Assembly: GCA_963727775.1 (NCBI GenBank)
Contig: CAVSHB010000002.1
Span: 352,001 to 416,000 of the forward strand
Source: an uncultured Nitrospiraceae bacterium
GTDB lineage: Bacteria > Nitrospirota > Thermodesulfovibrionia > Thermodesulfovibrionales > SM23-35
DNA length: 64,000 bases
Direction of reading: 5' to 3'
The notes below the pieces were generated by a model. The model was not told where the DNA came from. It searched no databases and saw only the letters and a program-made list of their open reading frames with translations. Made by a program: the position numbers and the translations under genes. Positions 47,744 through 64,000 of this stretch are shown here, piece after piece (the stretch's first letter is position 1; each line of letters opens with the position of its first letter).

Positions 47744-49426
47744 CTACACAGGGTTTAGTATCTTGTCTAATACTGTCCTTGCTACGACGAGTGGGTCGAT
47801 GAAGATCGATTCCATATCCTGCTCCAGATCACGCTTATTGGAAAGATAGGTGATCCTGTCCTGCATCCTGGCCCTTAGATACTCAAGATATTTACTATCA
47901 TGCGTGGGCTTGTATTTACGGTCGTAATCGCTCGCGAAGAGCTCGTTTCCATTCTTGGGGACTGAAAGCCCCTGAAAGCGCCTCCAGTCGCGCCATTCGA
48001 TATTGCCGCGCACAAGCTCGGTGACGATCTTAAGGGAAAGCTCCTTTGGAATATCCGTAAGATCGCCCGGGAGTCCGAAGGCATGAGTGTTCATGATATA
48101 GCATTCGCACCCGGCCTTGAAGAGCTTCACGAACTGCTGGCAATCGACGACGAGCGGATGCACGCGGAACGGATTTGCGAAAGGTTCGATCACAAGTTTT
48201 TCAAGCTCCTTGGCATCGACGTTCTCCACCCCCTTTGCCCTCATCGTCGAAAGCGACGCCCCCATTGAAACAGACAACACCGCGGAGTTTACCCGGCATA
48301 CGGGTGGCAATGAGGTGTCTTTTTGGAGCCATACCACTTTGTTTGGCGCCTCGCAGTAATCTGCGTGATTGAACATATCACGGCTCTTTATGCACCGGCC
48401 GTTGGCGTTGCGAATGTCTTCGCCCAGGAGCCTCCGCTCGCCGTTCGCTGTGCCGACGACGGCAACGTTCTGGGCAGAAAGAAAATATTTTATGTCAGGA
48501 TCGTTGAACTTCACGGAGTCGGTCTTATCGAAAAGGGCGGGCTCCAGCGCCACTGTTATGTTGTTTTCCAGATCGATAAGAAAAGCATCGTCGTGTATGA
48601 CCGTGACTTTTTCGTCAGGCCTCAGAGTGCCTCCGTGGTCGTGGCTGTTGGTGATCGAGGACTTGCCGCTTCCAGAAAGCCCGAAAACAGCCACCGGTGG
48701 GTTCTCGCCTATCGTCTTGATACCGCCGTGACAGGCCACCATGTTGTGGCGCACGCCCATCGTCCATGCAAGCGTGAGCGTCCCCTTCTTCCTTTCGCCG
48801 AAGTAGCGCATTCCCAATATGGCCATGCAGTTTTCCGCCTCGTCGATTATCGCAAGCCCCGAAGGATATTCCGGGCTTCTCCACTCGGGGTCTGCCAGGA
48901 CAAGTATATCCGGTTCATCCAGGTCCCGGGATTCTTTGTAAAGCCGGTCCCACGGCTTCATGAAAGGGGTGAAATTCAGTCCCCAGTCAAGCATATTCTT
49001 CGCGTCCGTGACCGGGCTTAAGAGATGGGCCTTCACCATGAAATCCTTGTGCAATCCCACAATCCCCTGAAGCCAAAGGCCCTGCCTGCGATTTAACTGA
49101 TAAATGGCGTCTAAGAGGACGGTCTTCAGCTTTGTGCGCTCGGCCTTGTCCAATTGGCGGACGAGCCTTCTTGCGCGGGCGGTCCTGCCCACCACAGCGC
49201 CGTCGTTCGATACCAGTATCTTAGCGTCTTTCGGAAGCCCGAACCTCTCCGGATCGTACATAGGCTGGGTCGTGCTTATTACCTCGGGTTGTTGCAAAGC
49301 CAGCCCGTAAAGTTCTGCCATTGTCGTCTGCCGGACGGAATTTGCGTAGAATGCGCTTCCGATAGCGGCCCTCCACGAAGAGGCTACCTGCTTGTATACT
49401 GATGTCATCTTTCTTCCCTCCCTCAT
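47744..49426 (-). CDS. pckA: Phosphoenolpyruvate carboxykinase (ATP)-family protein
   Basis: YFGE.KKG, CHGG, FGLSGSGKS, IHDD, FDKT, NGR, FANPFR. Confidence 0.85.
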   Translation of the reverse strand: MREGRKMTSVYKQVASSWRAAIGSAFYANSVRQTTMAELYGLALQQPEVISTTQPMYDPERFGLPKDAKILVSNDGAVVGRTARARRLVRQLDKAERTKLKTVLLDAIYQLNRRQGLWLQGIVGLHKDFMVKAHLLSPVTDAKNMLDWGLNFTPFMKPWDRLYKESRDLDEPDILVLADPEWRSPEYPSGLAIIDEAENCMAILGMRYFGERKKGTLTLAWTMGVRHNMVACHGGIKTIGENPPVAVFGLSGSGKSSITNSHDHGGTLRPDEKVTVIHDDAFLIDLENNITVALEPALFDKTDSVKFNDPDIKYFLSAQNVAVVGTANGERRLLGEDIRNANGRCIKSRDMFNHADYCEAPNKVVWLQKDTSLPPVCRVNSAVLSVSMGASLSTMRAKGVENVDAKELEKLVIEPFANPFRVHPLVVDCQQFVKLFKAGCECYIMNTHAFGLPGDLTDIPKELSLKIVTELVRGNIEWRDWRRFQGLSVPKNGNELFASDYDRKYKPTHDSKYLEYLRARMQDRITYLSNKRDLEQDMESIFIDPLVVARTVLDKILNPV

Positions 49427-49444
49427 TATTTCGCAATTCAGTCT

Positions 49445-49873
49445 CTAAAGCGAGCCGGCGTCTTTAAGCATGTTTATTACCGTTGAAAATTGTTCGGGGT
49501 CCAAGGGCTTGAACATATAATACCCGGCGGACAGGTTGTAAGCTTTTTCGACATCCTGCTCGATCGTTGAGGTGGTCAGGATTATCACCGGTATCCTGCT
49601 CAGGTCCGGGTCCTGCTTGATCTCAGCAAGCACTTCAAAACCGGTTTTTTTCGGTAGGTTGAGGTCGAGCATAATGATATCAGGGCTCACTGCATCGACA
49701 TACCCGTTAGCGCGGCGTAAATAGGCCATAGCCTCGTCTCCGTCTCCGACGCTGTAGAAATTGTGCGGGATTTCGCTGTCTTTGATGCTTTCCTTGGTAA
49801 GATACACATCTGCGGGGTTGTCCTCAACCAGGAGGATATTTATATAATCAGCCTCTGTTTTTAATATATTCAT
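49445..49873 (-). CDS. Single-domain response regulator (Rcp1-like)
   Basis: ILLVEDNPAD, MLDLNLP, IPVIILTTS, KP; start taken at MNILK. Confidence 0.9.
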   Translation of the reverse strand: MNILKTEADYINILLVEDNPADVYLTKESIKDSEIPHNFYSVGDGDEAMAYLRRANGYVDAVSPDIIMLDLNLPKKTGFEVLAEIKQDPDLSRIPVIILTTSTIEQDVEKAYNLSAGYYMFKPLDPEQFSTVINMLKDAGSL

Positions 49874-49883
49874 GGCATATCGT

Positions 49884-50027
49884 TCAGCAACATATTGTAA
49901 AATAAAATATTGAGCCTTTTCCAGTGCCGGGTTCAACCCATATATCGTATTCCGTCCTGCCATGAAGCCGCTGGAAGATAACAGAGACCCGCTCCTCGTC
50001 GTTTAGGTCTATCCCGATGCCGTTATT
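49884..50027 (-). pseudogene. Histidine kinase ATPase-domain remnant
   Basis: Translates [46 protein letters not shown]2-box segment absent. Confidence 0.8.
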
Positions 50028-50109
50028 AGGCGGATTGTCATCTTCCCTTCGATCCAACAATACTGAACAAACAAAGGCGTCAAAAGCGGTTACTCCAAAC
50101 TCTTATTTC

Positions 50110-50199
50110 TGGCGGAGGGGCAGGGATTCGAACCCTGGGTGGAGTTGCCCCCACAACGATTTTCGAGACCGTCCCATTCAACCGCTCTGGCACCCCTCC
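50110..50199 (-). tRNA. tRNA-Ser(CGA)
   Basis: Reverse complement GGAGGGG...ACGGT-CTCGAAA-ATCGT, long variable arm, GGTTCGAATCC, CCCCTCCGCCA. Confidence 0.97.
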
Positions 50200-50270
50200 T
50201 TATAAAAGCAATAAACAGTAAATAGTAAACAGTTTTAAATAAAAAACACAATTACTCAGGCACAAATAAA

Positions 50271-50729
50271 TTATCTCCGTTCCTGAAAGAATCTTTTCAA
50301 CAATTCTGCACACTCTTCTTCGAGCACCCCCGATACCAATTCCACCTGATGGTTCAGTCTTTTGTCTGAAAGCAATCTGTAGAGACTGTCAACGGCGCCT
50401 CCTTTTCCGTCTCTGCATCCGTAAACGAGCCTGCCGAGTCTTGCGTTGATCATCGCCCCTGCGCACATGATACACGGCTCTTTTGTCACGTAAAGCGTTG
50501 TCTGGGTCAATCTCCACTTACTGTCACCGCCGGCCCCTGTCCTGATCGCGAGAATTTCAGCATGCCCTGTCGGGTCTTGGGACGCTTCCCGGCAATTATG
50601 TGCTTTTGCTACAATTTCACGTTCTTTTACAAGCACGGCGCCGACGGGCACTTCGCCTTCGTTGAAAGCAAGGGCGGCCTCTTCAAGGGCAAGCCTCATA
50701 AAATAGATATCGTTTTCCATGACATGCAT
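50271..50729 (-). CDS. tadA: tRNA adenosine(34) deaminase
   Basis: GEVPVGAV, HAE, EPCIMC, LNH, FF..RR. Confidence 0.96.
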   Translation of the reverse strand: MHVMENDIYFMRLALEEAALAFNEGEVPVGAVLVKEREIVAKAHNCREASQDPTGHAEILAIRTGAGGDSKWRLTQTTLYVTKEPCIMCAGAMINARLGRLVYGCRDGKGGAVDSLYRLLSDKRLNHQVELVSGVLEEECAELLKRFFQERR

Positions 50730-50797
50730 ATCAATATATTCTATCGGAAGGGTTCAAAAAAATCATGGTAAGATAGAATTGAAATGAGTGTAAGCAG

Positions 50798-51589
50798 ATG
50801 ACCAGAGACGATTTGACTGTTTTGAAAAACCGGTTCTCGACGTATTGCAAATCTTTTTATGCGTCTGACGCCGAGGACCAAAAAAATATCTCTTTGAAAG
50901 AAGAGCATACATTTCATGTATGCAGGAATATAGTTGAAATAGCCGTGGGCTTGTCGCTTAATGATGAGAAAATATTGTTGGCTGAATCAATAGCATTGTT
51001 CCACGATATAGGCAGGTTCCCGCAGTATGCGCAGTACAAAACTTTCAGGGACAGCGTTTCGGTGAATCACGGCCTTCTCGGCGCGGAGACGCTTATTGAA
51101 GAAAAGATGCTGCAAGACCTGTCTTCCAACGAACAGGAGATAATTGTTAAGTCGGTAAAATTTCATAATGCCTTCTCCATATCGAAGACGATGACAAAGG
51201 AAATTGTTTTCTTTCTGAAATTAATAAGGGATGCGGACAAGCTGGACATATGGCGCGTTTTTTTGGAATATTATGAAAGCCCGGACGAGATGAAGGCGTC
51301 GGCGGTCGGTCTCGGTCTGCCGGATTTGCCCGAATATTCAGAGGAAGTCGTCTCCTGCATATTCACGAAAAAGATCGTGTCGCTGTCGATGCTGAAAACC
51401 CTGAATGATTTTAAACTCCTGCAGCTGTCATGGATATTCGACCTGAATTTCGAACCGACCTTTCGATTGTTGCACGGGAGAGATTACATAAACAGGCTCA
51501 CAGCTCATTTGCCTCGGACAGAAAAGATTAACAGTATCTCGGTCTTTTTGCATGACTATGTAAAAAAGAAAATCCCATCTTATTCGTAG
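50798..51589 (+). CDS. HD-domain phosphohydrolase
   Basis: K..HT..V, HDIGRF, H, RDADKLD. Confidence 0.88.
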   Translation: MTRDDLTVLKNRFSTYCKSFYASDAEDQKNISLKEEHTFHVCRNIVEIAVGLSLNDEKILLAESIALFHDIGRFPQYAQYKTFRDSVSVNHGLLGAETLIEEKMLQDLSSNEQEIIVKSVKFHNAFSISKTMTKEIVFFLKLIRDADKLDIWRVFLEYYESPDEMKASAVGLGLPDLPEYSEEVVSCIFTKKIVSLSMLKTLNDFKLLQLSWIFDLNFEPTFRLLHGRDYINRLTAHLPRTEKINSISVFLHDYVKKKIPSYS

Positions 51590-51856: not shown

Positions 51857-53299
51857 TCATTTACTTACAAAGGTGCTCGTATCCCAGTGTTTCCATTTCA
51901 GGTACTCGTTTATTGCCTTAGCCGCCTTTCTCCCTGCGCCCATCGCAAGGATAACAGTCGCGGAGCCCGTGAGTATATCACCGCCTGCAAAGACGCCCTT
52001 CTTCGAGGTCATGCCGGTCTCTTCATCGGCCACGATATATCCCCTTTTATTCAGTAATAAATCGGGCACTGTTTTCGTCAGCAATGGGTTTGACCTTGTG
52101 CCGATGGCCGGTATTGCAACGTCTATCCCGATCCGGAATTCGCTGCCGTTAACAGGGACCGGCTTTCTCCTGCCCGATTGATCAGGTTCTCCCAACTCCA
52201 TCTTTTCGCATTCAACCTCGCAGACATTCCCCTTGCCGTCATCTATAAACCGCAGAGGGTTTGTCAGCAGCATGAATTCAATGCCTTCTTCATGCGCGTG
52301 ATGGATCTCCGCTTTTCGCGCAGGCATCTCGGCCTGTGAGCGCCGGTAGACGAGATACACCTTCTCCGCGCCGAGCCGCAATGCAACTCTCGCCGCATCC
52401 ATCGCAACATTGCCGCCACCGAAGACCGCAACGTTTTTGCCTTTTTTTATCGGCGTATCATACTCCGGGAAAAGATACGCCTTCATAAGGTTGGCGCGGG
52501 TGAGGAATTCATTTGCGGAATAAATGCCGTTAAGGTTCTCTCCGGGTATACCCATGAACATAGGCAGCCCAGCTCCGGTGGCGATGAAGCATGCGTCATA
52601 TCCATTGTCATTGAATAGTTCATCGACGGTGTGGAGTTTCCCGATTACCGAGTTCAGCTTCAACTCAACCCCGAGTTTCTCTATGTACTCAACTTCTTTT
52701 TCCACTATTACTTTCGGCAGCCTGAATTCAGGTATGCCGTAAATCAATACCCCTCCGGGTTTGTGCAATGCTTCGAATAATGTAACTTGATGTCCATCCC
52801 GTATCAGATCAGCGGCGCAGGCCAACCCGCCGGGACCCGAACCGATTATGGCGACCTTCCTGCCGGTCTGTTTCGGTCTCCCCGGGATCTGCACATCCCC
52901 CTGCTCCCTCTCATAGTCTGCGACAAAACGTTCAAGATTCCCTATCGCGACCGGTTCTCCTTTTTTGCCGAGGATACAGAGAGATTCACACTGTATCTCC
53001 TGTGGGCATACCCTGCCGCAGACAGAAGGGAATGCGTTGTCTTCTTTTATCTTCCAGGCAGCTTCTATAAATTTTCCTTCTTTCACTAATTTTATAAATG
53101 AAGGGATATCCACCGATACAGGACATCCGCTTCTGCATGAAGGTTTTAAACAGCTGAGACATCTCGACGCCTCTTCGACGGCCTCGTCGCGGGTATATCC
53201 ATAGGGGACTTCCATGAAATTCCTCGCCCTTGCCAACGGCTCCTGTTCCCTCATCTTTATTCTGTTTTTGGGTTGTTTGGCGGACTTTTTTTCTTCCAT
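51857..53299 (-). CDS. nfnB: NfnB/SudA: large subunit of electron-bifurcating transhydrogenase (GltD-like)
   Basis: RCL.C..P.C..GCP, CGRVCPQE.QCE..C, GSGPGG, GGGNVAMD, YRRS, GGD..TG.ATV. Confidence 0.88.
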   Translation of the reverse strand: MEEKKSAKQPKNRIKMREQEPLARARNFMEVPYGYTRDEAVEEASRCLSCLKPSCRSGCPVSVDIPSFIKLVKEGKFIEAAWKIKEDNAFPSVCGRVCPQEIQCESLCILGKKGEPVAIGNLERFVADYEREQGDVQIPGRPKQTGRKVAIIGSGPGGLACAADLIRDGHQVTLFEALHKPGGVLIYGIPEFRLPKVIVEKEVEYIEKLGVELKLNSVIGKLHTVDELFNDNGYDACFIATGAGLPMFMGIPGENLNGIYSANEFLTRANLMKAYLFPEYDTPIKKGKNVAVFGGGNVAMDAARVALRLGAEKVYLVYRRSQAEMPARKAEIHHAHEEGIEFMLLTNPLRFIDDGKGNVCEVECEKMELGEPDQSGRRKPVPVNGSEFRIGIDVAIPAIGTRSNPLLTKTVPDLLLNKRGYIVADEETGMTSKKGVFAGGDILTGSATVILAMGAGRKAAKAINEYLKWKHWDTSTFVSK

Positions 53300-54135
53300 T
53301 ATTTGGCCCCCGTCTTTTCCTTGTACCGATCGAAGGCTATTTTTTCCTCCTCGATATACATCCTCTGTCGCGACATGAGCAAATTAAAATCAACTTTGTG
53401 CCCGTCAAATTCGGGGCCGTCAACACACGCAAACTTTGTCTCTCCGCCTACTTCCACCCTGCATGCGCCGCACATGCCTGTCGCATCCACCATGATTGAA
53501 TTCAGGCTGACGACGGTTTTTGCACTGTGCTTCTCTGTTGTCACGCACACAAATTTCATCATGATGGCGGGACCTATCGCGTAAACCAGTCCGATGCCTT
53601 TTTCTTCTTTGAGAAGTTCATCCAGCGGAACGGTCACTACCGCCTTCCTGCCGTAAGAGCCGTCATCCGTTACAATGATCAGTTCATCCGACACCTTGCG
53701 CATCTTGTCTTCCCAGAAGATGAGGTCTTTCGTCCTCGCGCCGATGATCGAATAAACCGTATTGCCTGCTTCTTTGAGAGCCCTCGCAATCGGATATGTG
53801 GGAGCTATCCCGACACCGCCGCCGACACAGATTACCTTCCCGAAATTATCTATGTGAGAGGGCATTCCGAGCGGCCCGATAACATCTAATATATGATCGC
53901 CTTCATTTAATGTCCCCAGGTGATGGGTCGTCTTTCCCATTTTCTGAAAAACTGTCGAAATCGTGCCTTTGTCCCTGTCGAAATCGGCGATTGTCAAAGG
54001 TATCCTTTCGCCCTGCTCATGGATCCTCAAAGTGAAAAAATTACCCGCCTTTGCTTTTTTTGCGATATCCCTTGCTTCGATTTCAAATAATGTGACTAAA
54101 TCCGATAACTCCTGTTTCCTTAAGATTTTAAACAT
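53299..54135 (-). CDS. nfnA: NfnA/SudB: small FAD/[2Fe-2S] subunit
   Basis: GERIPLTI, GPLG, GGGVG, TDDGS, D.TGMCG.CRV, CVDGPEF. Confidence 0.88.
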   Translation of the reverse strand: MFKILRKQELSDLVTLFEIEARDIAKKAKAGNFFTLRIHEQGERIPLTIADFDRDKGTISTVFQKMGKTTHHLGTLNEGDHILDVIGPLGMPSHIDNFGKVICVGGGVGIAPTYPIARALKEAGNTVYSIIGARTKDLIFWEDKMRKVSDELIIVTDDGSYGRKAVVTVPLDELLKEEKGIGLVYAIGPAIMMKFVCVTTEKHSAKTVVSLNSIMVDATGMCGACRVEVGGETKFACVDGPEFDGHKVDFNLLMSRQRMYIEEEKIAFDRYKEKTGAK

Positions 54136-54247
54136 CAAAAGCTCCTTCCTTTTTATAGATAATGGACGGTATCACATATTATATACACTTTAAAGCCGGA
54201 CTATTTTTTTAAAAAACAAAAAACTTTTCCGTAAACCCATTTTTTAC

Positions 54248-54287: not shown

Positions 54288-54659
54288 ATGCCAGGAACGT
54301 ATTTACCATTAGACTATTTGCCGGTTTTTATTTTCATCGTTATCGCGATGGCCTTCGGATTCGGCGCTCTTCTTCTCGGCATGATCTTCAGGCCGAAAAA
54401 ACCATACTATGAAAAGCTCATGCCCTATGAATCCGGCATCACCCCGACGGGAGAACCCCGCTACAAATTTTCGATAAGGTTTTATATCATCGCCATGCTG
54501 TTTGTCGTATTCGATGTGGAAGCAATTTTTCTTTATCCCTGGGCAATAGTATTCGACAAAATCGGAATGTATGCATTTGTAGAAATGGTGCTTTTTATCG
54601 CAGTACTGCTGGTCGGATATCTTTATGCCTGGAAGAAAGAGGCCTTTGAATGGGATTGA
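54288..54659 (+). CDS. nuoA: Complex I subunit A
   Basis: K..PYESG, FVVFDVE..FLYPW. Confidence 0.96.
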
Positions 54660-54675
54660 AAATGAGAGGTGGAAA

Positions 54676-55194
54676 ATGATCGATACATCAGCCATGGGAC
54701 TTATTCAGGTAGAACCGGACGTAAAAATATTGCCCCCGAATATCATCATCACCTCCTTTGACAAGATTATTAATTGGGGAAGGTTGTCTTCAATGTGGCC
54801 GACCACTTTCGGTCTCGCCTGCTGCGCGATAGAGATGATGGCGGCAGGCGCAGCCCATAATGATTTAGACCGGTTTGGGATCATTTTCAGAGGTTCGCCG
54901 AGACAGGCGGACTGCGTGATTGTAGCAGGTACCGTCACAAAGAAAATGGCCCCCGTAGTCAGAAGGGTCTATGACCAGATCCCGGAACCGCGGTATGTGA
55001 TAGCGATGGGAAGCTGCGCGTGCACGGGAGGGGTTTTCAAAACTTACAGTACTGTCCAGGGATGTGATTCTTTCCTTCCCGTTGACGTATATGTACCCGG
55101 TTGTCCCCCGAGGCCTGAGACATTGCTTGAGGGGTTGATAATGCTTCAGGAAAAGATCAGAAAAGAAAAGGCAAGGTGGAGTCCATGGCGGTAA
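54676..55194 (+). CDS. nuoB: Complex I subunit B
   Basis: [29 protein letters not shown]; start uncertain. Confidence 0.96.
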
Positions 55195-55766
55195 CGGAAG
55201 TAAGAATTTCGATATTTCCCGCAGGGCTGAACCCGAAAGATATAGCAGAAAAGGTGAAGGAAAAATTTCCGGAACAGGTGGTCGATGTCGCCGAATTCAG
55301 AGATCAGGTCTCTATTATCGTTAAAAAGGACCAGATAGTCCCGATCCTGAAATATCTCCACGATGACCCCCTTTTGAGCCTGGACCATCTCCAGGACCTT
55401 ACCGCTGTTGATTATCTCAAGAAAAAAGATGTCAGGTTCGAGGTTGTCTATAACCTTTATTCAATGAGATATCGCCATCAAATACGCATCAGAGCGCAAG
55501 TGGCGGAAAACGATCCAAAAATTGGCTCCGTGGTTCCTATTTGGGCCGGCGCCGATTGGCACGAAAGAGAATGTTACGACATGTTCGGCATCGTGTTTAA
55601 CGGACATCCCGATCTGAGGAGAATCCTGCTGCCCGAAGACTGGGAAGGACATCCCTTGAGAAAAGATTATCCTTTGGCGGGACCTGAACTTGAAAAAGAT
55701 TGGCCGGGGTTTGTTGATGTGCTCAAGAGATCAAAAGAATTGAGAGAGTTTGAGTGGGATGGATAA
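55176..55766 (+). CDS. nuoC: Complex I subunit C
   Basis: [29 protein letters not shown]. Confidence 0.96.
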
Positions 55767-57234
55767 GATGATCCAGAAAGAAGCAGAGAAGATATTCGAG
55801 ACAAGAGAACTTAATGTAAACATGGGGCCGCAGCACCCTGCAACACATGGTGTTTTGAGGCTTGTTCTTGATATAGACGGCGAGACAATCGTCAAGGTAA
55901 CTCCCCATATCGGATATCTCCACCGCGGCATCGAAAAGCTCGGGGAGAGCTTGAGTTATTTTCAGGCCCTTCCGTTGACGGACAGAATGGATTATGTGTC
56001 CGCGATGTCGAATAACATCGGCTATTGCGTTGCCGTTGAAAAACTGTTTGGTATAGAGGCCCCCGAGAGGGCAAAGTTCATAAGGACGATAGTAGGAGAG
56101 ATGTCGAGGATATCGAACCATCTCCTTTGGCTTGCGACCCATGCCCTTGATATCGGCGCCATGACCGTATTTATCTACTGCTTCAGGGAGAGAGAATGGA
56201 TCCTCGACCTGTACGAGATGATCTGCGGTGCGAGGCTTACCGTCACCTACCCGAGGGTAGGCGGCGTGAGGAACGATGTCCCGCAGGAATTTCTTGACAG
56301 CCTATGGAAATTTACGGACGAGTTCCCGTCAAGAATTCTGGAATACGAGACACTGATCGATCAGAACAGGATATGGCTACAGAGGACCGTGGGTATCGGG
56401 GTGATTTCAGCGGAAGAAGCGGTGAACTGGGGAATGACGGGACCGACGCTAAGAGGGTCCGGTGTTTCCTATGACATAAGAAAGCACATGCCCTATGACG
56501 CGTATGACAAGGTTGATTTTGAGGTGCCGATCGGTACCACGGGTGATACATACGACAGATACCGGTGCAGGATGCTCGAGATGAGGCAGTCGAACAGCAT
56601 ATTAAGGCAGTGCATCGAAAAGCTGCCGACGGGTCCGGTCATGGCCGATGCCCCGAAATTCACCCTTCAACCGAAAGATATGATGATGCCGATCACGCAT
56701 CCTACGAAAGAGTTGGCATATGTGATCGAGGAAAAGGTCTGCAAGGGGTGCGGCATGTGTATGAGAGCGTGTCCCGCAAAGGCGATCTTCGGAGAGAAGA
56801 AGAAACCCCATGAGATAAAGCAGGATCTCTGCCTGCAGTGCGGAAACTGTTTTGTGACCTGCAAGTTCAAGGCATTAAAGCTTATCCCCGGCGGCAAGGG
56901 CATGAGCGAAGAGCAGCTCAAGGAATTGGCCGCAGGTCCGATGCCGGAGGAGATCACGAAAGCCGCAGAATATATGGTTAAGCACTTCGAATTCGTGAAG
57001 AAAGGACCGAAAGTCCCGGAAGGGGAACTGTATGTGGCAACCGAGGTCCCCAAGGGCGAACTCGGGTTTTATTTTGTGAGTGACGGTTCGGGAAAACCTT
57101 TCAGGATGAGGTTAAGAGCACCGTCGTTTGTGCATGCCGGCGTTCTGCCGAGACTGTGCAAGGGGCATCTGGTTGCGGACGTAATCGCAAACATCGGTAC
57201 CATCGATATCGTGCTTGGAGAGTGTGACAGATAA
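55759..57234 (+). CDS. nuoD: Complex I subunit D with inserted 2x[4Fe-4S] domain
   Basis: [43 protein letters not shown]; insert [12 protein letters not shown] / [12 protein letters not shown]; start uncertain. Confidence 0.96.
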
Positions 57235-58298
57235 TGAATACACTTACTAATATCATATCTCCCTCGACTCTTGATGTTTTAATCAAATTTGGAATTAACG
57301 TATTAATCATTATTCTTAAGATAGTAATTGTTCTTGCGGTCGGGTTGCTCCACGTGGCTTACGCAACATATTTCGAACGTAAGGTCATCGGCCATATGCA
57401 GGTGAGGCTCGGACCTATGAGAGTCGGATGGCACGGTCTTCTTCAGCCTTTTGCGGACGGTATCAAGTTGTTTTTCAAGGAAGACATAATCCCTGCGCAG
57501 GCCGATAAAGCCGTATTCTACATTGCTCCGATCATTTTTATGGCAGCGGCAATGGTGAATCTTTCTTTTATCCCATTCGCTTCTAATTTTGCAGTTGCCC
57601 CAAACGTAAATATAGGCCTCTTGATGGTATTCGCCTTTGCCGGTATGGGCGTCTATGGCATATTCATATCCGGCTGGGCATCGAATTCCAAGTACTCTTT
57701 CCTCGGCGGGCTCAGGTCATCTGCTCAGGTGATAAGTTATGAGATCGCAATGGGACTGAGCCTCGTCGGTGTTATGATCATGTCCGGGTCCCTGAACCTT
57801 ACGGAGATCGTAAAGGCCCAGGAGGCATCCGTCTTCGGAATGTACGCGATACCTCAGATCGCCGCTTTCCTCGTGTTTACTATTGCGGCCTTAGCAGAGA
57901 CGAACAGGACGCCTTTTGACATGCCCGAGGCGGAGAGCGAGCTTGTTGCCGGCTACTTTACGGAGTACAGCAGTTTCAGGTTTGCACTTTTCTTCCTCGG
58001 TGAATATATCGCAATGATTATTATGGCTTCTCTGGCAACGGTATGTTTCCTGGGAGGTTGGACGTTGCCGTGGTATATCACATCGGTACTTCCCTTCTTA
58101 AAGCTGGTACCCGGTATTGTATGGTTCCTCATGAAGGTCTATGCCTTCATATTCTTCTATTACTGGATTAGGGCAACGGTGCCGAGATACAGATACGACC
58201 AGGTGATGAAGATCGGCTGGAAAGTACTAATACCGGTCGCATTGGCGAATATTGTGGTAACGGCCCTAGTGAAAATTTTGATGACAAAGGGAGTCTAA
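57234..58298 (+). CDS. nuoH: Complex I subunit H
   Basis: ERK..G.MQ.R.GP, AETNRTPFD.PEAESELVAG, PRYRYDQ. Confidence 0.97.
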   Translation: MNTLTNIISPSTLDVLIKFGINVLIIILKIVIVLAVGLLHVAYATYFERKVIGHMQVRLGPMRVGWHGLLQPFADGIKLFFKEDIIPAQADKAVFYIAPIIFMAAAMVNLSFIPFASNFAVAPNVNIGLLMVFAFAGMGVYGIFISGWASNSKYSFLGGLRSSAQVISYEIAMGLSLVGVMIMSGSLNLTEIVKAQEASVFGMYAIPQIAAFLVFTIAALAETNRTPFDMPEAESELVAGYFTEYSSFRFALFFLGEYIAMIIMASLATVCFLGGWTLPWYITSVLPFLKLVPGIVWFLMKVYAFIFFYYWIRATVPRYRYDQVMKIGWKVLIPVALANIVVTALVKILMTKGV

Positions 58299-58299
58299 G

Positions 58300-58830
58300 G
58301 TGACTGTCAGGGAAATTATCAAAAGGTTTACTTTCATAGAAATATTTCAGGGTATGGCCCTTACCTTGAAAATGATGTTCACTCACGCAGTTACTGTACA
58401 GTATCCCAAGGAAAGAAGGACCATAGCTCCCGGTTTCAGAGGGCAGCATGCACTTGCAAAGAATAAGGAAGGGAAAGCAAAATGCACCGGCTGTGGTCTC
58501 TGTGCGACGATTTGTCCGTCGCAATGCATTAAGGTCACAAGAGCCGAAGGAAGGGTGGCAAATTACGAATTGGACATATTGAGATGCATCTACTGCGGCT
58601 TCTGCGTAGAGGCTTGTCCGTATGGGGCGATCTCGCTGACCGAAAGCTACGAATACTCCGTGTATAAAAGAGAGGATCTGCTTCTGACAAAGGATAAGCT
58701 ATTAGCCAATTGGGATGAATTTATGCCTGGAAGTAAGGGGGATGTGTATTTCAGGAAATTCTGGCGACCAATGTCTGAGGATTTCGGTACTCCTCCGGGC
58801 CAGGCGGTCTTTAGAGGGAAAAAGGAATGA
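58300..58830 (+). CDS. nuoI: Complex I subunit I
   Basis: T.QYP.E, FRG, CTGCGLCATICP, CIYCGFCVEACP. Confidence 0.96.
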   Translation: MTVREIIKRFTFIEIFQGMALTLKMMFTHAVTVQYPKERRTIAPGFRGQHALAKNKEGKAKCTGCGLCATICPSQCIKVTRAEGRVANYELDILRCIYCGFCVEACPYGAISLTESYEYSVYKREDLLLTKDKLLANWDEFMPGSKGDVYFRKFWRPMSEDFGTPPGQAVFRGKKE

Positions 58831-59339
58831 TTCAGGAATTATCCTTCGGATATTTTGCATTTGCGATAGTGGTGCTTTCCATTCTCGTTATTACAAGGAG
58901 GAACCCAGTCCACAGCGTGCTCTGGATGCTGCTGCTCTTTTTCCATATCGCGAGCTTGTATCTTTTCCTGAACGCAGAGTTTATGGCTGCGATTCAGGTT
59001 ATTGTATATGCGGGCGGCATACTTGTATTGTTCCTTTTTGTAGTGTTGCTGATTAACCTCAGGGAAGAAGTTGGAATAAGCAATTTTATCAGCGCTGCCC
59101 CGACAGGGTTCACCTTTGCAGTCGGGCTCCTGGTTGTGATTACTATGTCCCTCAAATCATTTGTCGCAGCGCCTCCGGGTATTTATTCGATTGAAATGAT
59201 CAAGAAAGAAACCAATATAAAGGCCTTGGGGAAGTTATTATATACGGATTATCTCTACCCGTTTGAGGTCGCGTCATTGATCCTTCTGGTGGCAATCATA
59301 GGCGCTATAGTCCTTGCAAAAAGGAGGCTTAAGAGTTAA
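58827..59339 (+). CDS. nuoJ: Complex I subunit J
   Basis: RNPVHS, QVIVYAG.I.VLFLFV, PFE..S..LL. Confidence 0.95.
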   Translation: MIQELSFGYFAFAIVVLSILVITRRNPVHSVLWMLLLFFHIASLYLFLNAEFMAAIQVIVYAGGILVLFLFVVLLINLREEVGISNFISAAPTGFTFAVGLLVVITMSLKSFVAAPPGIYSIEMIKKETNIKALGKLLYTDYLYPFEVASLILLVAIIGAIVLAKRRLKS

Positions 59340-59341
59340 GC

Positions 59342-59644
59342 ATGGTCCCATTAAGCTGGTATATGACGCTCAGTACGGCAGTATTCGCGATCGGAGTCTT
59401 CGGATTCCTTTCGAGGAAAAATATTATTATCATGTTTATGTCCATAGAGCTGATGCTCAACGCTGTCAATATCAACCTGATAGCTCTTAGCCATTACCTC
59501 CAGGACCTGAGGGGACAGATACTGGCTCTCTTCGTTATCGCTGTGGCTGCCTCTGAAGCTGCGATAGGCCTTGCGATAGTCATAGCCTTATTCAGAAACA
59601 AGCCCACCGCTCATGTGGACGAGGTGAAGGAGATGCAGGGATGA
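59342..59644 (+). CDS. nuoK: Complex I subunit K
   Basis: SIELMLNA, VAA.EAAIGLA. Confidence 0.96.
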   Translation: MVPLSWYMTLSTAVFAIGVFGFLSRKNIIIMFMSIELMLNAVNINLIALSHYLQDLRGQILALFVIAVAASEAAIGLAIVIALFRNKPTAHVDEVKEMQG

Positions 59645-59654
59645 GGAGCAATTT

Positions 59655-61610
59655 ATGAAATTATATCTTTTAATACCGTTTCTGCCGCTCACAGCATTTA
59701 TAATTAATATTCTGCTCGGCAAAGAGGTCTTGAGAGAAAAAGCTCACTGGCCGTCCATCCTTGCGGTGGTAGGTTCATGGCTGGTGACGATATTTTCCGT
59801 CCTACCGCAGGTCATGGCGGGAAAGATCATCAACGAAGACCTCTACTCGTGGATAGCCTCAGGCACTTTCAATGTCGCCGTGGGATTTCTTATCGATCCG
59901 CTCACAGCGGTAATGCTGGTGGTTGTCACTACGTGCGCATCATTAATACATATATATGCCGTCGGCTATATGCACGGAGATACCGGCTATTACAGGTTCT
60001 TTGCGTATATGAGCCTCTTTACCTTCTGCATGCTGATGCTCGTCATGGGAAACAACTTCCTCCAGCTCTATTTCGGATGGGAGGGTGTGGGCTTATGCTC
60101 TTATTTCCTTATAGGCTATTATTTTAATAAGAAGTCAGCCGCTGACGCGGGTAAAAAGGCCTTTATCGTAAACAGGTTCGGGGACTTCGGATTCGGGCTT
60201 GGTGTATTTATGATATTCCTTACCTTTGGGACCCTGCATTATACGGATGTATTCGGCAGCGTAGCAGGCATTGTCGGCAAGACGGTAAATTTCCTGGGAT
60301 GGAACGTCGACCTTCCGACCCTTATAGCACTCCTTCTTTTCTGCGGCGCCGTCGGAAAGTCCGCGCAGCTTCCGCTGCATGTATGGCTTCCCGATGCTAT
60401 GGAAGGGCCCACGCCTGTCAGCGCCTTAATCCATGCGGCAACGATGGTCACAGCTGGTGTATTTCTCGTTGCCAGGTGCAACCCTATATTCAACCTGTCC
60501 GCAGTTGCAATGAATACGGTCGCTATTGTCGGCGCGCTTACCATGTTCTTTGCCGCGTCGATTGCCATTACGCAGAATGACATCAAGAGGATTATCGCTT
60601 ACTCTACATGCAGTCATTTAGGTTATATGTTCGTCGCATGCGGTGTGGGCGCCTATTCTGCGGGCATTTTCCATCTTTATACACACGCATTCTTTAAGGC
60701 CCTGCTCTTCCTTGCGGCGGGTAGTGTTATTCATTCCGTTCATACGAACAATATCCAGGAGATGGGCGGCTTAAAAAAATATATGCCGATAACCTATGCG
60801 GTATTTGTAATCGCAGGCCTGAGCGCTGGAGGATTTCCGGGCTTGTCGGGGTTCTTCAGTAAGGACGAGATTATATGGTCCGCATATGCTTCAGGTTCTT
60901 CTGTAGGCAAATTCGTCTGGGTGCTCGCTCTCGCGGGCGCGTTTTTCACGCCTCTATATACATTCAGACTTATATTCGTAACATTTCATGGGAAAAATCG
61001 CGGCGTGCATCACGAAGAGCACGGTCACGATGCTCATGGATCGCATGGAGAACACCACATTCATGAGTCTCCAAAAGTCATGACGGTCCCGTTAATGCTC
61101 CTTGGGGTCGGCGCGGTTGCCGCGGGTTGGTTCGGGATCCCGCCGATACTTGGCGGCGGCTCGCATTTCGCCGAGTTTCTCAAGCCGGTGTTGGGAGAGC
61201 CTGAGTTCCACGCGTCACACGCGGAAGAATGGGGTGTAATGGCATTATCAACGGCCATCGCGCTTTCTGGACTCGGTGTTGCAGCGTTCCTCTATCTGAG
61301 GAAAACCGATCTCCCGGAAAGGATAGTGAAAACCTTCAGTGGATTGCACAAGATCCTTTACAACAAATATTATGTCGACGAGTTTTACAGTTACACAATC
61401 ATAAAGCCGACAATGTGGATAGCCAAAAATATTCTTGTTGCGATTACCGACGGAAAGATGATAGAGGGAGTTGTTAACGGTTTACCAAGCGCAATCGGCA
61501 GGTTCAGCGGAAAATTGCGGAGAGTTCAGACAGGCCTGACGCATCACTACGGGATCATAATGGCAGCCGGCGCATTCTTTATAATTGCTCTGGCATTATT
61601 ACTTAGATAG
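59655..61610 (+). CDS. nuoL: Complex I subunit L
   Basis: GWEGVG, NR.GD, GKSAQ.PLH.WLPDAMEGPTPVSALIHAATMV, HAFFKA. Confidence 0.97.
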   Translation: MKLYLLIPFLPLTAFIINILLGKEVLREKAHWPSILAVVGSWLVTIFSVLPQVMAGKIINEDLYSWIASGTFNVAVGFLIDPLTAVMLVVVTTCASLIHIYAVGYMHGDTGYYRFFAYMSLFTFCMLMLVMGNNFLQLYFGWEGVGLCSYFLIGYYFNKKSAADAGKKAFIVNRFGDFGFGLGVFMIFLTFGTLHYTDVFGSVAGIVGKTVNFLGWNVDLPTLIALLLFCGAVGKSAQLPLHVWLPDAMEGPTPVSALIHAATMVTAGVFLVARCNPIFNLSAVAMNTVAIVGALTMFFAASIAITQNDIKRIIAYSTCSHLGYMFVACGVGAYSAGIFHLYTHAFFKALLFLAAGSVIHSVHTNNIQEMGGLKKYMPITYAVFVIAGLSAGGFPGLSGFFSKDEIIWSAYASGSSVGKFVWVLALAGAFFTPLYTFRLIFVTFHGKNRGVHHEEHGHDAHGSHGEHHIHESPKVMTVPLMLLGVGAVAAGWFGIPPILGGGSHFAEFLKPVLGEPEFHASHAEEWGVMALSTAIALSGLGVAAFLYLRKTDLPERIVKTFSGLHKILYNKYYVDEFYSYTIIKPTMWIAKNILVAITDGKMIEGVVNGLPSAIGRFSGKLRRVQTGLTHHYGIIMAAGAFFIIALALLLR

Positions 61611-61617
61611 GAGAAAA

Positions 61618-63156
61618 ATGGAACAGGTAATCATGAATCAATTAAGCTTCCCAATCCTGAGCACGGTTATATTCCTACCTGTTTTAGGCGCATTGCTCAT
61701 TCTTTTAAACAGAAGATCATGGGAATTGCTTACGAAATGGATTGCCTTAACAACGAGCGTTGCGACATTTCTGCTGTCAGTCCCGCTCTTCACCGATTTT
61801 GACAAGACTACGTATAGGATGCAGTTTGCCGAAAAATTCAGCTGGATTTCGAACTGGAACATTTATTATTTCCTGGGCGTTGACGGTATAAGCGTTTTGT
61901 TTATTCTTTTGTCCACATTGACCGCCATCCTTTGCGTCCTCATATCGTGGAATTCAATAAAGATGAAGGTAAAAGAGTTTTATATCGCGATACTTTTAAC
62001 TACTTCGTTTATGATAGGCGTATTCTGCTCACTCGACTTTTTCCTTTTCTATATTTTCTGGGAGGCCATGCTTATCCCCATGTTCCTCATCATCGGCGTA
62101 TGGGGAGGTCCGAACAGGGTCTATGCGGCAATAAAGTTCTTCCTGTATACCCTGGTCGGCAGCGTGCTCATGCTTGTCGGCATAATCGTGCTTTATCTTT
62201 ACGCCGGGAAGACATTCAATATCCTTGACTTAATGACTAAGACATATCCTTATACGATGCAGCTGTGGCTTTTCTGGGCATTCTTCGCGGCATTTGCCGT
62301 AAAAGTCCCGATGTGGCCCGTGCACACATGGTTGCCTGATGCCCATACGGAAGCCCCTACAGCGGGCAGTGTGATTCTGGCGGCCGTGCTTATTAAGATG
62401 GGGGCGTATGGTTTTCTCAGGTTTGCTCTGCCCTTATGCCCTGAGGCCTCAAAAGCGATGACCCCTGTTATGCTGACACTTTCAGTGATCGGGATAATCT
62501 ATGGCGCTGTAATATGTCTTGCGCAGACAGATCTGAAGAGGCTGATTGCATACAGCTCAGTGAGCCATATGGGTTTTGTGACACTGGGGATATTTGCCCT
62601 GAACATCCAGGGACTCGAAGGCGGGATACTGCAAATGCTGAACCACGGCGTCGTTACCGGAGCGCTCTTCTTGTCCGTCGGGATAGTTTACGACAGAACA
62701 CATACAAGGAAGATCGCTGATTACGGCGGCCTCGCATCGGTCATGCCTATTTATGCCGCGTTCTTTATGGTATTTACCCTTGCGGCGATCGGGTTGCCCG
62801 CAACGAACGGTTTCATCGGTGAATTCCTTATCCTTCTCGGAGGGTTTGCGGCCAGTAAATGGGCGGGAGTGCTCGCATGCACCGGAATAATCATCGGCGC
62901 CGGATACATGCTCTGGCTTTATCAGAGGATATTCTTTATGGAGACGAACCAGAAGATCATCGGTCTGACCGACATGGATATAAGAGAAACGATAACACTC
63001 ATCCCTATGCTTATCCTTGTTTTCTGGATAGGCATTTATCCGAATTCATTCCTCGGTTTCATGCACGCGTCTGTTCAGCATCTCCTGGAAAGAGTTAATT
63101 CGGGCGGAGTACAGGAAGCGAACGCCGCTAAAGCCTTTATGGAGGTTGTCAGATGA
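61618..63156 (+). CDS. nuoM: Complex I subunit M
   Basis: GVDGIS, FWE, K.P.WP.HTWLPDAH.EAP, AYSSVSHMG, F.GEF. Confidence 0.96.
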   Translation: MEQVIMNQLSFPILSTVIFLPVLGALLILLNRRSWELLTKWIALTTSVATFLLSVPLFTDFDKTTYRMQFAEKFSWISNWNIYYFLGVDGISVLFILLSTLTAILCVLISWNSIKMKVKEFYIAILLTTSFMIGVFCSLDFFLFYIFWEAMLIPMFLIIGVWGGPNRVYAAIKFFLYTLVGSVLMLVGIIVLYLYAGKTFNILDLMTKTYPYTMQLWLFWAFFAAFAVKVPMWPVHTWLPDAHTEAPTAGSVILAAVLIKMGAYGFLRFALPLCPEASKAMTPVMLTLSVIGIIYGAVICLAQTDLKRLIAYSSVSHMGFVTLGIFALNIQGLEGGILQMLNHGVVTGALFLSVGIVYDRTHTRKIADYGGLASVMPIYAAFFMVFTLAAIGLPATNGFIGEFLILLGGFAASKWAGVLACTGIIIGAGYMLWLYQRIFFMETNQKIIGLTDMDIRETITLIPMLILVFWIGIYPNSFLGFMHASVQHLLERVNSGGVQEANAAKAFMEVVR

Positions 63157-64000
63157 ATTTCCGGCTTCCCGATATCAGCCTTATGATGCCTGAACTTACA
63201 ATGATTGCCCTGGCATTGGTAGTCCTGCTCATTGACCTTTTAATAAAGAAGAAGGAGGTAATAGCATTAATAAGCATGGCGGGAGCAGCCCTTGCATCGT
63301 TGACTCTCTTCGGATCACCGGGAACAACCTTCGGGACCATGTATATTTCGGACGGCTACAGCACATTCTTCAAGCTGATATTCCTTATTAATGTAATACT
63401 GACTGTTTTAATTTCCATTAAGTATATCAATATCGAAAAAGTCAATTACGGAGAATATTACAGTCTCATTCTTTTTTCCACAATCGGCATGATGATAATG
63501 GCGTCCGCGGGTGACCTTATTGTGTTGTATTTAGGGCTTGAGCTTATGGCACTCAGCACCTATGTTCTTGCGGGATTCATCAGGCAGAATATTAAATCGA
63601 ATGAGGCGGCCCTGAAATATTTCCTTCTCGGCGCTTTTTCTTCAGCGTTCCTTTTATACGGCATATCATTAATCTACGGCTTAACAGGCACAACAGATAT
63701 AAAGGCGATAGCATCTTTTATTACGGAAAAAGGTCTTGCCGGCAACTTCTCGCTCCTGCTCTCCGTCATATTTTTTACGGTTGCCTTCGGGTTCAAGATC
63801 GCTGCCGCGCCATTCCACATGTGGACGCCGGACGTATATGAGGGCGCACCTACATCAATAACGGCTTTCATGTCAGTAGGGCCGAAGGCCGCTGGGTTTG
63901 CAGTGCTTGGCCGTGTTTTCATGGTTGCATTCGCATCGGTTAAGCTCGAATGGGCAGCAATACTTATCCCAATTTCAATACTCACAATGGCCATCGGCAA
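63153..64000 (+). CDS. nuoN: Complex I subunit N, 3'-truncated by window edge
   Basis: Reads MNFRLPDISLMMPEL..., GEYY, LGLE, EAALKYF, FK..AAPFHMWTPDVYEGAP; absent from the ORF track because it has no stop in the window. Confidence 0.95.
   Translation, partial: MNFRLPDISLMMPELTMIALALVVLLIDLLIKKKEVIALISMAGAALASLTLFGSPGTTFGTMYISDGYSTFFKLIFLINVILTVLISIKYINIEKVNYGEYYSLILFSTIGMMIMASAGDLIVLYLGLELMALSTYVLAGFIRQNIKSNEAALKYFLLGAFSSAFLLYGISLIYGLTGTTDIKAIASFITEKGLAGNFSLLLSVIFFTVAFGFKIAAAPFHMWTPDVYEGAPTSITAFMSVGPKAAGFAVLGRVFMVAFASVKLEWAAILIPISILTMAIG

Follow-up and report, generated by a model that had tools for sequence, protein, structure and literature searches.

The locus described here raises the question of how a complex I without an NADH module is supplied with electrons, and whether a ferredoxin-like insertion in one of its core subunits is part of the answer. 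In the window, the whole 64,000-nucleotide stretch of DNA analysed, the forward strand carries nuoA (54288-54659), nuoB (54625-55194), nuoC (55176-55766), nuoD (55750-57234), nuoH (57234-58298), nuoI (58300-58830) and, from 58827 to 64000, nuoJ, nuoK, nuoL, nuoM and the start of nuoN, which ends 580 bases past the window. The initial annotation of this DNA had given the order as A-B-C-D-H-I-J-K-L-M-N with nuoD against nuoH, and this order holds. Because the start of nuoH overlaps the stop of nuoD, there is no E-F-G between them. The core set NuoA-D and NuoH-N is present in full: HMM matches identify A, B, C, D, H, I, L and M (Pfam for A, B and C, with NCBIfam in addition for B and C), J and K are assigned by position and sequence alone, and N resembles L/M and the N-like gene of a second operon in BLAST. 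The operon contains no NuoEFG of its own and does not encode a 14-subunit NADH:quinone oxidoreductase.

The reported absence of E, F and G applies to this operon but not to the genome (G000). A second complete nuo operon of the E. coli type is located on contig C4 (L081, C4:33095-47851) and adjoins zwf/pgl-like genes; in it C and D are fused, and E, F and G have 154, 425 and 917 aa, respectively. It was probably acquired by transfer, and the EFG of this genome belongs to that other complex I, not to the one encoded in the window.

The 494-aa open reading frame at 55750-57234 scores 557 bits against TIGR01962 (cut-off 459), and its probable start is the ATG at 55771, as judged from homologues of 486-489 aa. 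An in-frame insert with two cysteine motifs had been proposed for this NuoD and is confirmed in the frame. Alignment with canonical NuoD, suggested at the time as a means of delimiting the insert, gave the same answer twice. The solved NuoD chains align in two pieces separated by a 90-aa gap (residues 328 and 329 of 8ba0_D correspond to residues 304 and 395 of the query), and the alignment with the insertless sister NuoD of a relative, G159, yields a net in-frame insertion of 90 aa. Residues 3-305 of the G159 protein match query residues 11-313 at 85% identity, and its residues 299-396 match query residues 397-494 at 77%. Residues 299-305 thus align to both flanks of the insertion, and these 7 residues form a junction repeat with its first copy at 56668-56688 and its second at 56938-56958.

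The graft itself comprises residues 320-395 (76 residues; 56707-56934, forward strand), namely a B3/B4 ferredoxin-like domain, as in BfuB proteins, followed by the C-terminal tail helix of its donor. The span 56716-56886 marked in the initial annotation corresponds exactly to the 2x[4Fe-4S] fold, residues 323-379, but falls short of the whole insertion. Pfam Fer4 matches residues 324-346 (E 1.3e-9) and Fer4_6 residues 355-375. With this fold and two CxxCxxCxxxC motifs, C331, C334, C337 and C341 followed by Pro (56740-56772) and C361, C364, C367 and C371 followed by Lys (56830-56862), the insert qualifies as a 2x[4Fe-4S] ferredoxin-like domain. The Lys after the second motif is also present in most of the donor BfuBs. 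Conservation of the insert cysteines in homologues had been named as a point on which the proposal could fail. Both motifs are invariant in 71 of 71 aligned sequences, as are all eight Cys and six Lys (K329, K332, K350, K351, K372 and K374); this alignment consists of the query and 70 of 75 NuoD+Fer4 clusters, five fragments of 279-380 aa having been left out, and the underlying search used the junction region and so itself favours similar inserts. The fold (residues 323-379) is basic, with 11 K/R versus 5 D/E counted from the translation, and by its sequence it is more like a receptor for an acidic ferredoxin than like a tethered ferredoxin.

The remainder of the protein has the features of NuoD in a complex I-like quinone reductase. 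H33, Y82 and D134 are intact and invariant in the 71 sequences; with an offset of +5, they correspond to H38, Y87 and D139 of Thermus thermophilus Nqo4, which are named as quinone-site residues (PMC6992706). The translation has no CxxC pairs at the N- or C-terminal positions of [NiFe] ligands.

An AlphaFold2 single-chain model of NuoD has a mean pLDDT of 58.7. Values are 68-84 in the stretch 311-410 but stay mostly below 50 from residue 415 to 494; the model is poor outside the insert and unreliable after residue 414. Residues 315-379 of the model match residues 521-584 of StnB (8oh5_B) with Z 9.1 and an rmsd of 1.6 Å over 64 aligned residues. A Foldseek search with the model had NuoD chains alone among the matches listed. 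The C-terminal B3/B4 domain of BfuB, HydB and StnB (7p5h_B, 8oh5_B) resembles the graft in sequence (E 9e-13) as well as in fold. Unlike that domain, the graft is tethered at both ends within a membrane pump and has neither an FMN core nor BfuC.

The initial likening of the insert to the C-terminal ferredoxin domain of HydB/NuoF-type subunits can be traced further, to a BfuB linked to complex I. The graft matches residues 528-605 of the BfuB of G249 with 50 of 78 residues identical (64%, E 5e-32), tail helix included. Within the Thermodesulfovibrionales family of this genome (f1), the best matches after the inserts themselves are BfuB genes of 620-655 aa, present only in eight insertless genomes. 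The C-terminal B3/B4 domain, the ferredoxin-docking part, of a complex-I-linked BfuB is thus likely to be the donor of the graft. Two other candidates were rejected. The operon's own nuoF is an implausible source, given that the order-type NuoF is short (420-422 aa) and has no Fer4 end. The formate dehydrogenase BfuB of G000 (58% over 55 aa) lacks the tail helix that is common to the graft and the BfuBs of the family.

A complex I with a BfuABC head, termed Nuo-Bfu, was predicted by Schut et al. (2022, PMC9304861), with Nitrospirae among its carriers. In G090, a genome of family f2, a Bfu module lies between nuoD and nuoH, that is, in the E-F-G slot (L174:4876-15175), which matches the Nuo-Bfu arrangement described in that paper and links BfuA, BfuB and BfuC to the nuo cluster. 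The same module, with a BfuA 73% identical, is divergent from nuoA in G159 (L125:1928-14439), where it reads kinase, nfnS, nfnL, receiver-BfuC, thioredoxin-like, BfuB and NuoG-like BfuA. G138 has a full short-F nuo operon together with the divergent Bfu module. The operon in the window has no such linkage. Its counterpart on the reverse strand, divergent from nuoA, is a pair of nfnS-like (53299-54138) and nfnL-like (51857-53299) genes, named NfnSL here by our reading of their domain make-up. In G159 and G278, nfnSL lies inside the Bfu cassette, and the pair in the window is what is left of this Bfu-head cassette of the relatives.

The NuoG-like BfuA was found at an identity of at least 64% in eight of the 57 f1 genomes, all of them insertless (8 of the 10 insertless genomes). 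No donor-type BfuA was found in any of the 43 insert genomes of the family, the best matches listed there being at most 50% identical, and G140, an insert genome outside the family, has none either. Neither donor-type BfuA nor donor-type BfuB was found in G000, in which the five PF01512 matches belong to RnfC, to the formate dehydrogenase (Fdh) BfuB, to two BfuBs linked to CODH and to NuoF from the second nuo operon. The exclusivity of head and graft is not entirely clean, in that a Bfu module of some kind occupies the divergent locus in three insert genomes. In G197 it is an Fdh-like Bfu module. In G253 (L146:9972-13157) and G187 (L148:4856-8044), a chimera of about 1060 aa is encoded divergently from the insert-bearing nuo operon; its first 558 aa are 81% identical to donor-type BfuB, and its B3/B4 end is replaced by an NfnL/GltD-like module.

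Two further observations concern the Bfu head of the relatives. The genes that accompany it in G090 and G159 encode a sensor kinase, a receiver-BfuC fusion and an RsbW-like kinase, besides a PHP gene, and suggest that the head is under phospho-regulation. Donor-type BfuB is duplicated in G249 and G278, with a copy (L127:1188-3047 and L126:6817-8727, respectively) in which the GDEGDPGAFMD motif, which we take to be the FMN/NADH site, is lost or altered and B3/B4 is kept. The altered copy outscores the other against the insert, with 106 versus 85 bits in G249 and 93 versus 89 bits in G278. It is therefore possible that a paralogue with a dead flavin site was the donor.

The insert is present in 43 of the 57 genomes of the family, which argues that it is neither a chance event nor a misassembly. 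The other 14 comprise ten with an insertless NuoD, two in which no NuoD was found (G227 and G256), and two that are 60-70% complete and have no insert match. G227 is a 100%-complete genome without a nuoD or nuoI match at the thresholds used. Full-length matches among 251 genomes of the class were confined to G000, 21 f1 genomes and G140 (family f2), and the 14 matching genomes among 401 of the phylum again belonged to f1 or were G140. The latter has an insert-bearing, EFG-less operon (L116:8351-9835) with a NuoD 91% identical to that of the window in a genome of another family, which may reflect transfer or a binning error. A search with the junction region returned 87 proteins, of which 75 are the NuoD+Fer4 clusters and the other 12 are long proteins of the NuoF/BfuB type. 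Insert-length matches were obtained for 24 of 80 named loci, 23 labelled Thermodesulfovibrionales or other Nitrospirota and one Nitrospinota. Among the best 150 of 1.84 billion representatives, a single 50%-identity cluster spanned the junction, and the Atlas contributed one Nitrospirota cluster with a score of 0.79, which we regard as a lead. No independent graft was seen at this junction, the site within reach of the searches, and five candidates that were checked were not NuoD. All insert carriers probably descend from one event; genus g16 contains both the insert and the insertless state. Since the insert, the missing head and the short NuoI hairpin described below probably mark one lineage, their co-occurrences are not independent and count as one observation.

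A correlation of the NuoD+Fer4 architecture with loss of nuoEFG had been anticipated. It holds insofar as no insert genome has a match of more than 50% identity to the order-type short NuoF, but seven of the ten insertless relatives are EFG-less as well. Loss of EFG consequently does not need the graft, which tracks the loss of the BfuABC head rather than that of canonical EFG, and the idea of the graft as a direct replacement of EFG is weakened. Five of the seven (G159, G249, G266, G271 and G272) have a Bfu head. The other two, G230 and G239, have no donor-type head and carry a different, Fdh-like Bfu module (in G239 as judged from match positions). The graft is thus not required for a headless complex. 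In G279 and G280, a short NuoF is kept behind nuoD (63-66%) together with a Bfu head; G278 has a Bfu head and probably a short NuoF too. G199 (L113:681-1136) has a cyclic-nucleotide-binding-like frame between nuoD and nuoE, recognized by eye. Ordered by parsimony alone, events would have begun with an intact nuo operon and a divergent BfuABC as a second head, as in relatives. Canonical EFG would have been lost first; the Bfu head would have been lost next, with its C-terminal B3/B4 domain spliced into NuoD and the hairpin of NuoI trimmed.

NuoI holds clusters N6a and N6b, and the hairpin between its two Cys motifs is encoded at about 58528-58566. The window's own NuoI has a hairpin 5 aa shorter than that of insertless relatives. 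As judged from match spans, the hairpin is reduced by 5-6 aa in each of the 40 insert genomes with a NuoI match (three have no match) and likewise in G256, whereas all 10 insertless genomes have the long form. The shortening is probably one inherited event, and from the sequences it would fit with room being made for the graft.

The site of the graft can be compared with NDH-1, the cyanobacterial ferredoxin:plastoquinone oxidoreductase. There, ferredoxin binds 9.6 Å from N6a, in a pocket made up of the long hairpin of NdhI and a C-terminal piece of NdhH (PMC6992706), and K315 and K321 of NdhH contact ferredoxin (PMC7021789). In the register of the alignment, K421 of the query (57010-57012, forward strand) is the equivalent of K321 and residue 298 that of NdhH residue 289, so that the graft falls in the NdhH 290-320 interval. 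Like NDH-1, as described in these reports, the complex encoded in the window would have 11 core subunits, no NADH module and electron entry at N6a, and the graft lies in the stretch of NuoD that matches the ferredoxin patch of NdhH, with K321 kept. NDH-1 differs in its long basic NdhI hairpin, its extra subunits and the lack of added clusters; here, NuoI has a shortened hairpin, and NuoD is predicted to carry two clusters. The NDH-1 combination of a long basic hairpin and the K315/K321 patch is thus not found, the hairpin being shorter than even that of the insertless relatives despite the K321 equivalent. The entry point of the graft, on the far end of a helix, precedes K421 by about 26 residues, so that the graft could point away from NuoI.

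Taking these observations together, we propose, with a probability of roughly 0.6, that NuoD of an 11-subunit, headless complex I acquired the ferredoxin-docking end of the confurcating head which the complex once had, and that electrons pass from ferredoxin via B3/B4, N6a, N6b and N2 to menaquinone. We infer the cluster occupancy, the geometry, the donor, the direction of flow and the order of events in this proposal. Reduced acidic ferredoxin would dock on the basic graft, electrons would pass through B3/B4 to N6a and N6b in NuoI, to N2 in NuoB and on to menaquinone, and the flow would drive proton pumping by NuoH, L, M and N. The ferredoxin would likely be reduced by the neighbouring NfnSL-like enzyme and by the CODH-, Fdh- and Rnf-type systems of the genome. 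A futalosine-pathway MqnA/D gene in G000 suggests menaquinone as the quinone. In a Bfu enzyme, ferredoxin is bound 12.8 Å from B3 and B4, between the B3/B4 domain and BfuC, and removal of the B4 cysteines lowered one of the listed activities from 17.2 to 0.76 (PMC12018979). Further points weigh against the proposal. Unlike the one solved ferredoxin-bound Bfu case, there is no nuo-linked BfuC here, and the graft, being basic, is no mimic of an acidic ferredoxin sitting in the pocket.

Energetically, transfer from ferredoxin to menaquinone would yield 0.69-0.85 eV per two electrons, versus 0.41-0.49 eV from NADH (potentials from Table 1 of PMC9304861). Four protons cost about 0.6 eV at an assumed 150 mV. 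A forward, ferredoxin-fed pump is therefore favoured.

A bolder extension seems possible to us, if somewhat doubtful. NuoD would be an Fe-S protein and the pump's own ferredoxin port on a five-cluster wire, and the family would preserve a stepwise series from NADH head plus bifurcating head, through bifurcating head only, to grafted port. This would be an independent route to a ferredoxin-only complex I by cannibalizing a bifurcating head. In G253 and G187, the low-potential branch that the BfuB without B3/B4 is missing may be supplied in trans by the NuoD graft.

Alternatively, the graft may lie on the wire but dock a donor enzyme instead of free ferredoxin, either the adjacent NfnSL-like enzyme or a Bfu head without its own B3/B4. 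The donor-type BfuB core lacking this domain at the nuo locus of G253 and G187 points in that direction, as does the report that B3/B4 of Bfu enzymes takes electrons from the BfuC cluster (PMC12018979). Moreover, 29 of the 43 insert genomes have nfnS immediately next to nuoA in divergent orientation, and three more have it behind a Bfu module. However, the chimera occurs at the nuo locus in just 2 of the 43, 11 of the 43 have no nfnS match at 1e-80, and nfnSL is adjacent in insertless genomes too, so that this adjacency predates the graft or is independent of it. We consider such docking unlikely, although it survives better than the other alternatives.

Somewhat less probable still is that the graft binds its clusters off the electron path, as a redox sensor or as a structural cap for a surface bared by the loss of NuoG/BfuA. 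Its site is presumably where a head would cover NuoD and NuoI in complex I. Homologue P0076 lacks 17 linker residues, which would suggest a loose geometry, although this may be an assembly error. Against this, the headless relatives need no such cap, and invariant surface lysines inherited from a ferredoxin-docking domain fit the binding of a partner.

It is improbable that the same wire runs in reverse, with proton-motive force driving electrons from menaquinol to ferredoxin. B3/B4 is the ferredoxin-reducing exit in solved Bfu enzymes (PMC12018979), and the genome has ferredoxin-demanding systems. Yet Rnf and the NfnSL-like enzyme already offer routes to reduced ferredoxin, and the gap of 0.69-0.85 eV would need more than about 170-210 mV with four protons per two electrons. 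That the insert is an artefact or a decaying passenger sequence is hardly credible: frames are shortened at the insert in a few carriers (G264, G251 and one G270 copy, 206-209 aa), but recurrence in 43 genomes refutes an artefact, and full-length homologues keep the frame and all Cys at 62-95% identity in the insert region.

If NuoD does carry the ferredoxin-docking domain of a former head as an entry point, the complex encoded in the window is predicted to work like NDH-1 and would descend from Nuo-Bfu, while belonging to neither. It shares with Nuo-Bfu the B3/B4 2x[4Fe-4S] domain, present here as a graft, likely from the BfuB of such a head. Unlike Nuo-Bfu, the operon has no linked BfuA, BfuB core or BfuC. 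What is left of the head is B3/B4 alone, within NuoD, so that the complex should have lost NADH co-oxidation and confurcation. An 11-subunit enzyme resembling complex I, with the same gene order, nuoABCDHIJKLMN, has been described in Desulfitobacterium hafniense, where the direct donor is stated to be an open question, with ferredoxins among the candidates (PMC11238625). The part of that source available to us mentions no NuoD insert; in the operon of the window, the core itself includes a candidate port.

To our knowledge, there is no precedent for a NuoD carrying cofactors, and such a protein would be one consequence of the proposed entry point. The openly licensed literature, searched without supplements, yielded no description of a ferredoxin insert in NuoD; the supplementary Nuo-Bfu table or figure of PMC9304861 may list these organisms. 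In the main text of the openly licensed Nitrospirota literature examined, neither 'nuo' nor 'complex I' occurred. Judged by its sequence, the graft is a concrete candidate for how a headless complex I is fed, and with a specific domain of 76 residues, a gene as its likely donor and a change in NuoI to match, this feeding can be addressed by experiment. If correct, it would also show how complex I switches between NADH, confurcating and ferredoxin inputs, a transition for which Nuo-Bfu has been proposed as a possible mediator (PMC9304861). Its reach is narrow, namely one family of uncultured, anaerobic Thermodesulfovibrionales known here from sequences alone.

Several other loci of this genome were recorded in passing. 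On contig C4 (L124:6652-16943), the genes behind a CODH gene encode BfuC, a tandem pair of BfuB-CBS fusions, a small Fer4 protein and BfuA; this arrangement resembles the Codh-Bfu clusters that PMC9304861, in the part available to us, reports from Firmicutes only. On contig C1 (L082:6849-11860), genes for BfuC, BfuB and FdhF form a cluster in which an in-frame TGA, probably coding for selenocysteine, occupies the catalytic position; Crp-like and fhs genes come next. A third set of nuo-related genes, NuoB-, CD-, H- and L/M-like, is located on contig C2 (705944-713136) and probably encodes a group 4 hydrogenase-related complex. In the window, beyond nfnL (47744-51589), there are a PEP-carboxykinase-like frame, a lone receiver domain, a tadA-like gene and an HD-domain gene, the last alone called by HMM.
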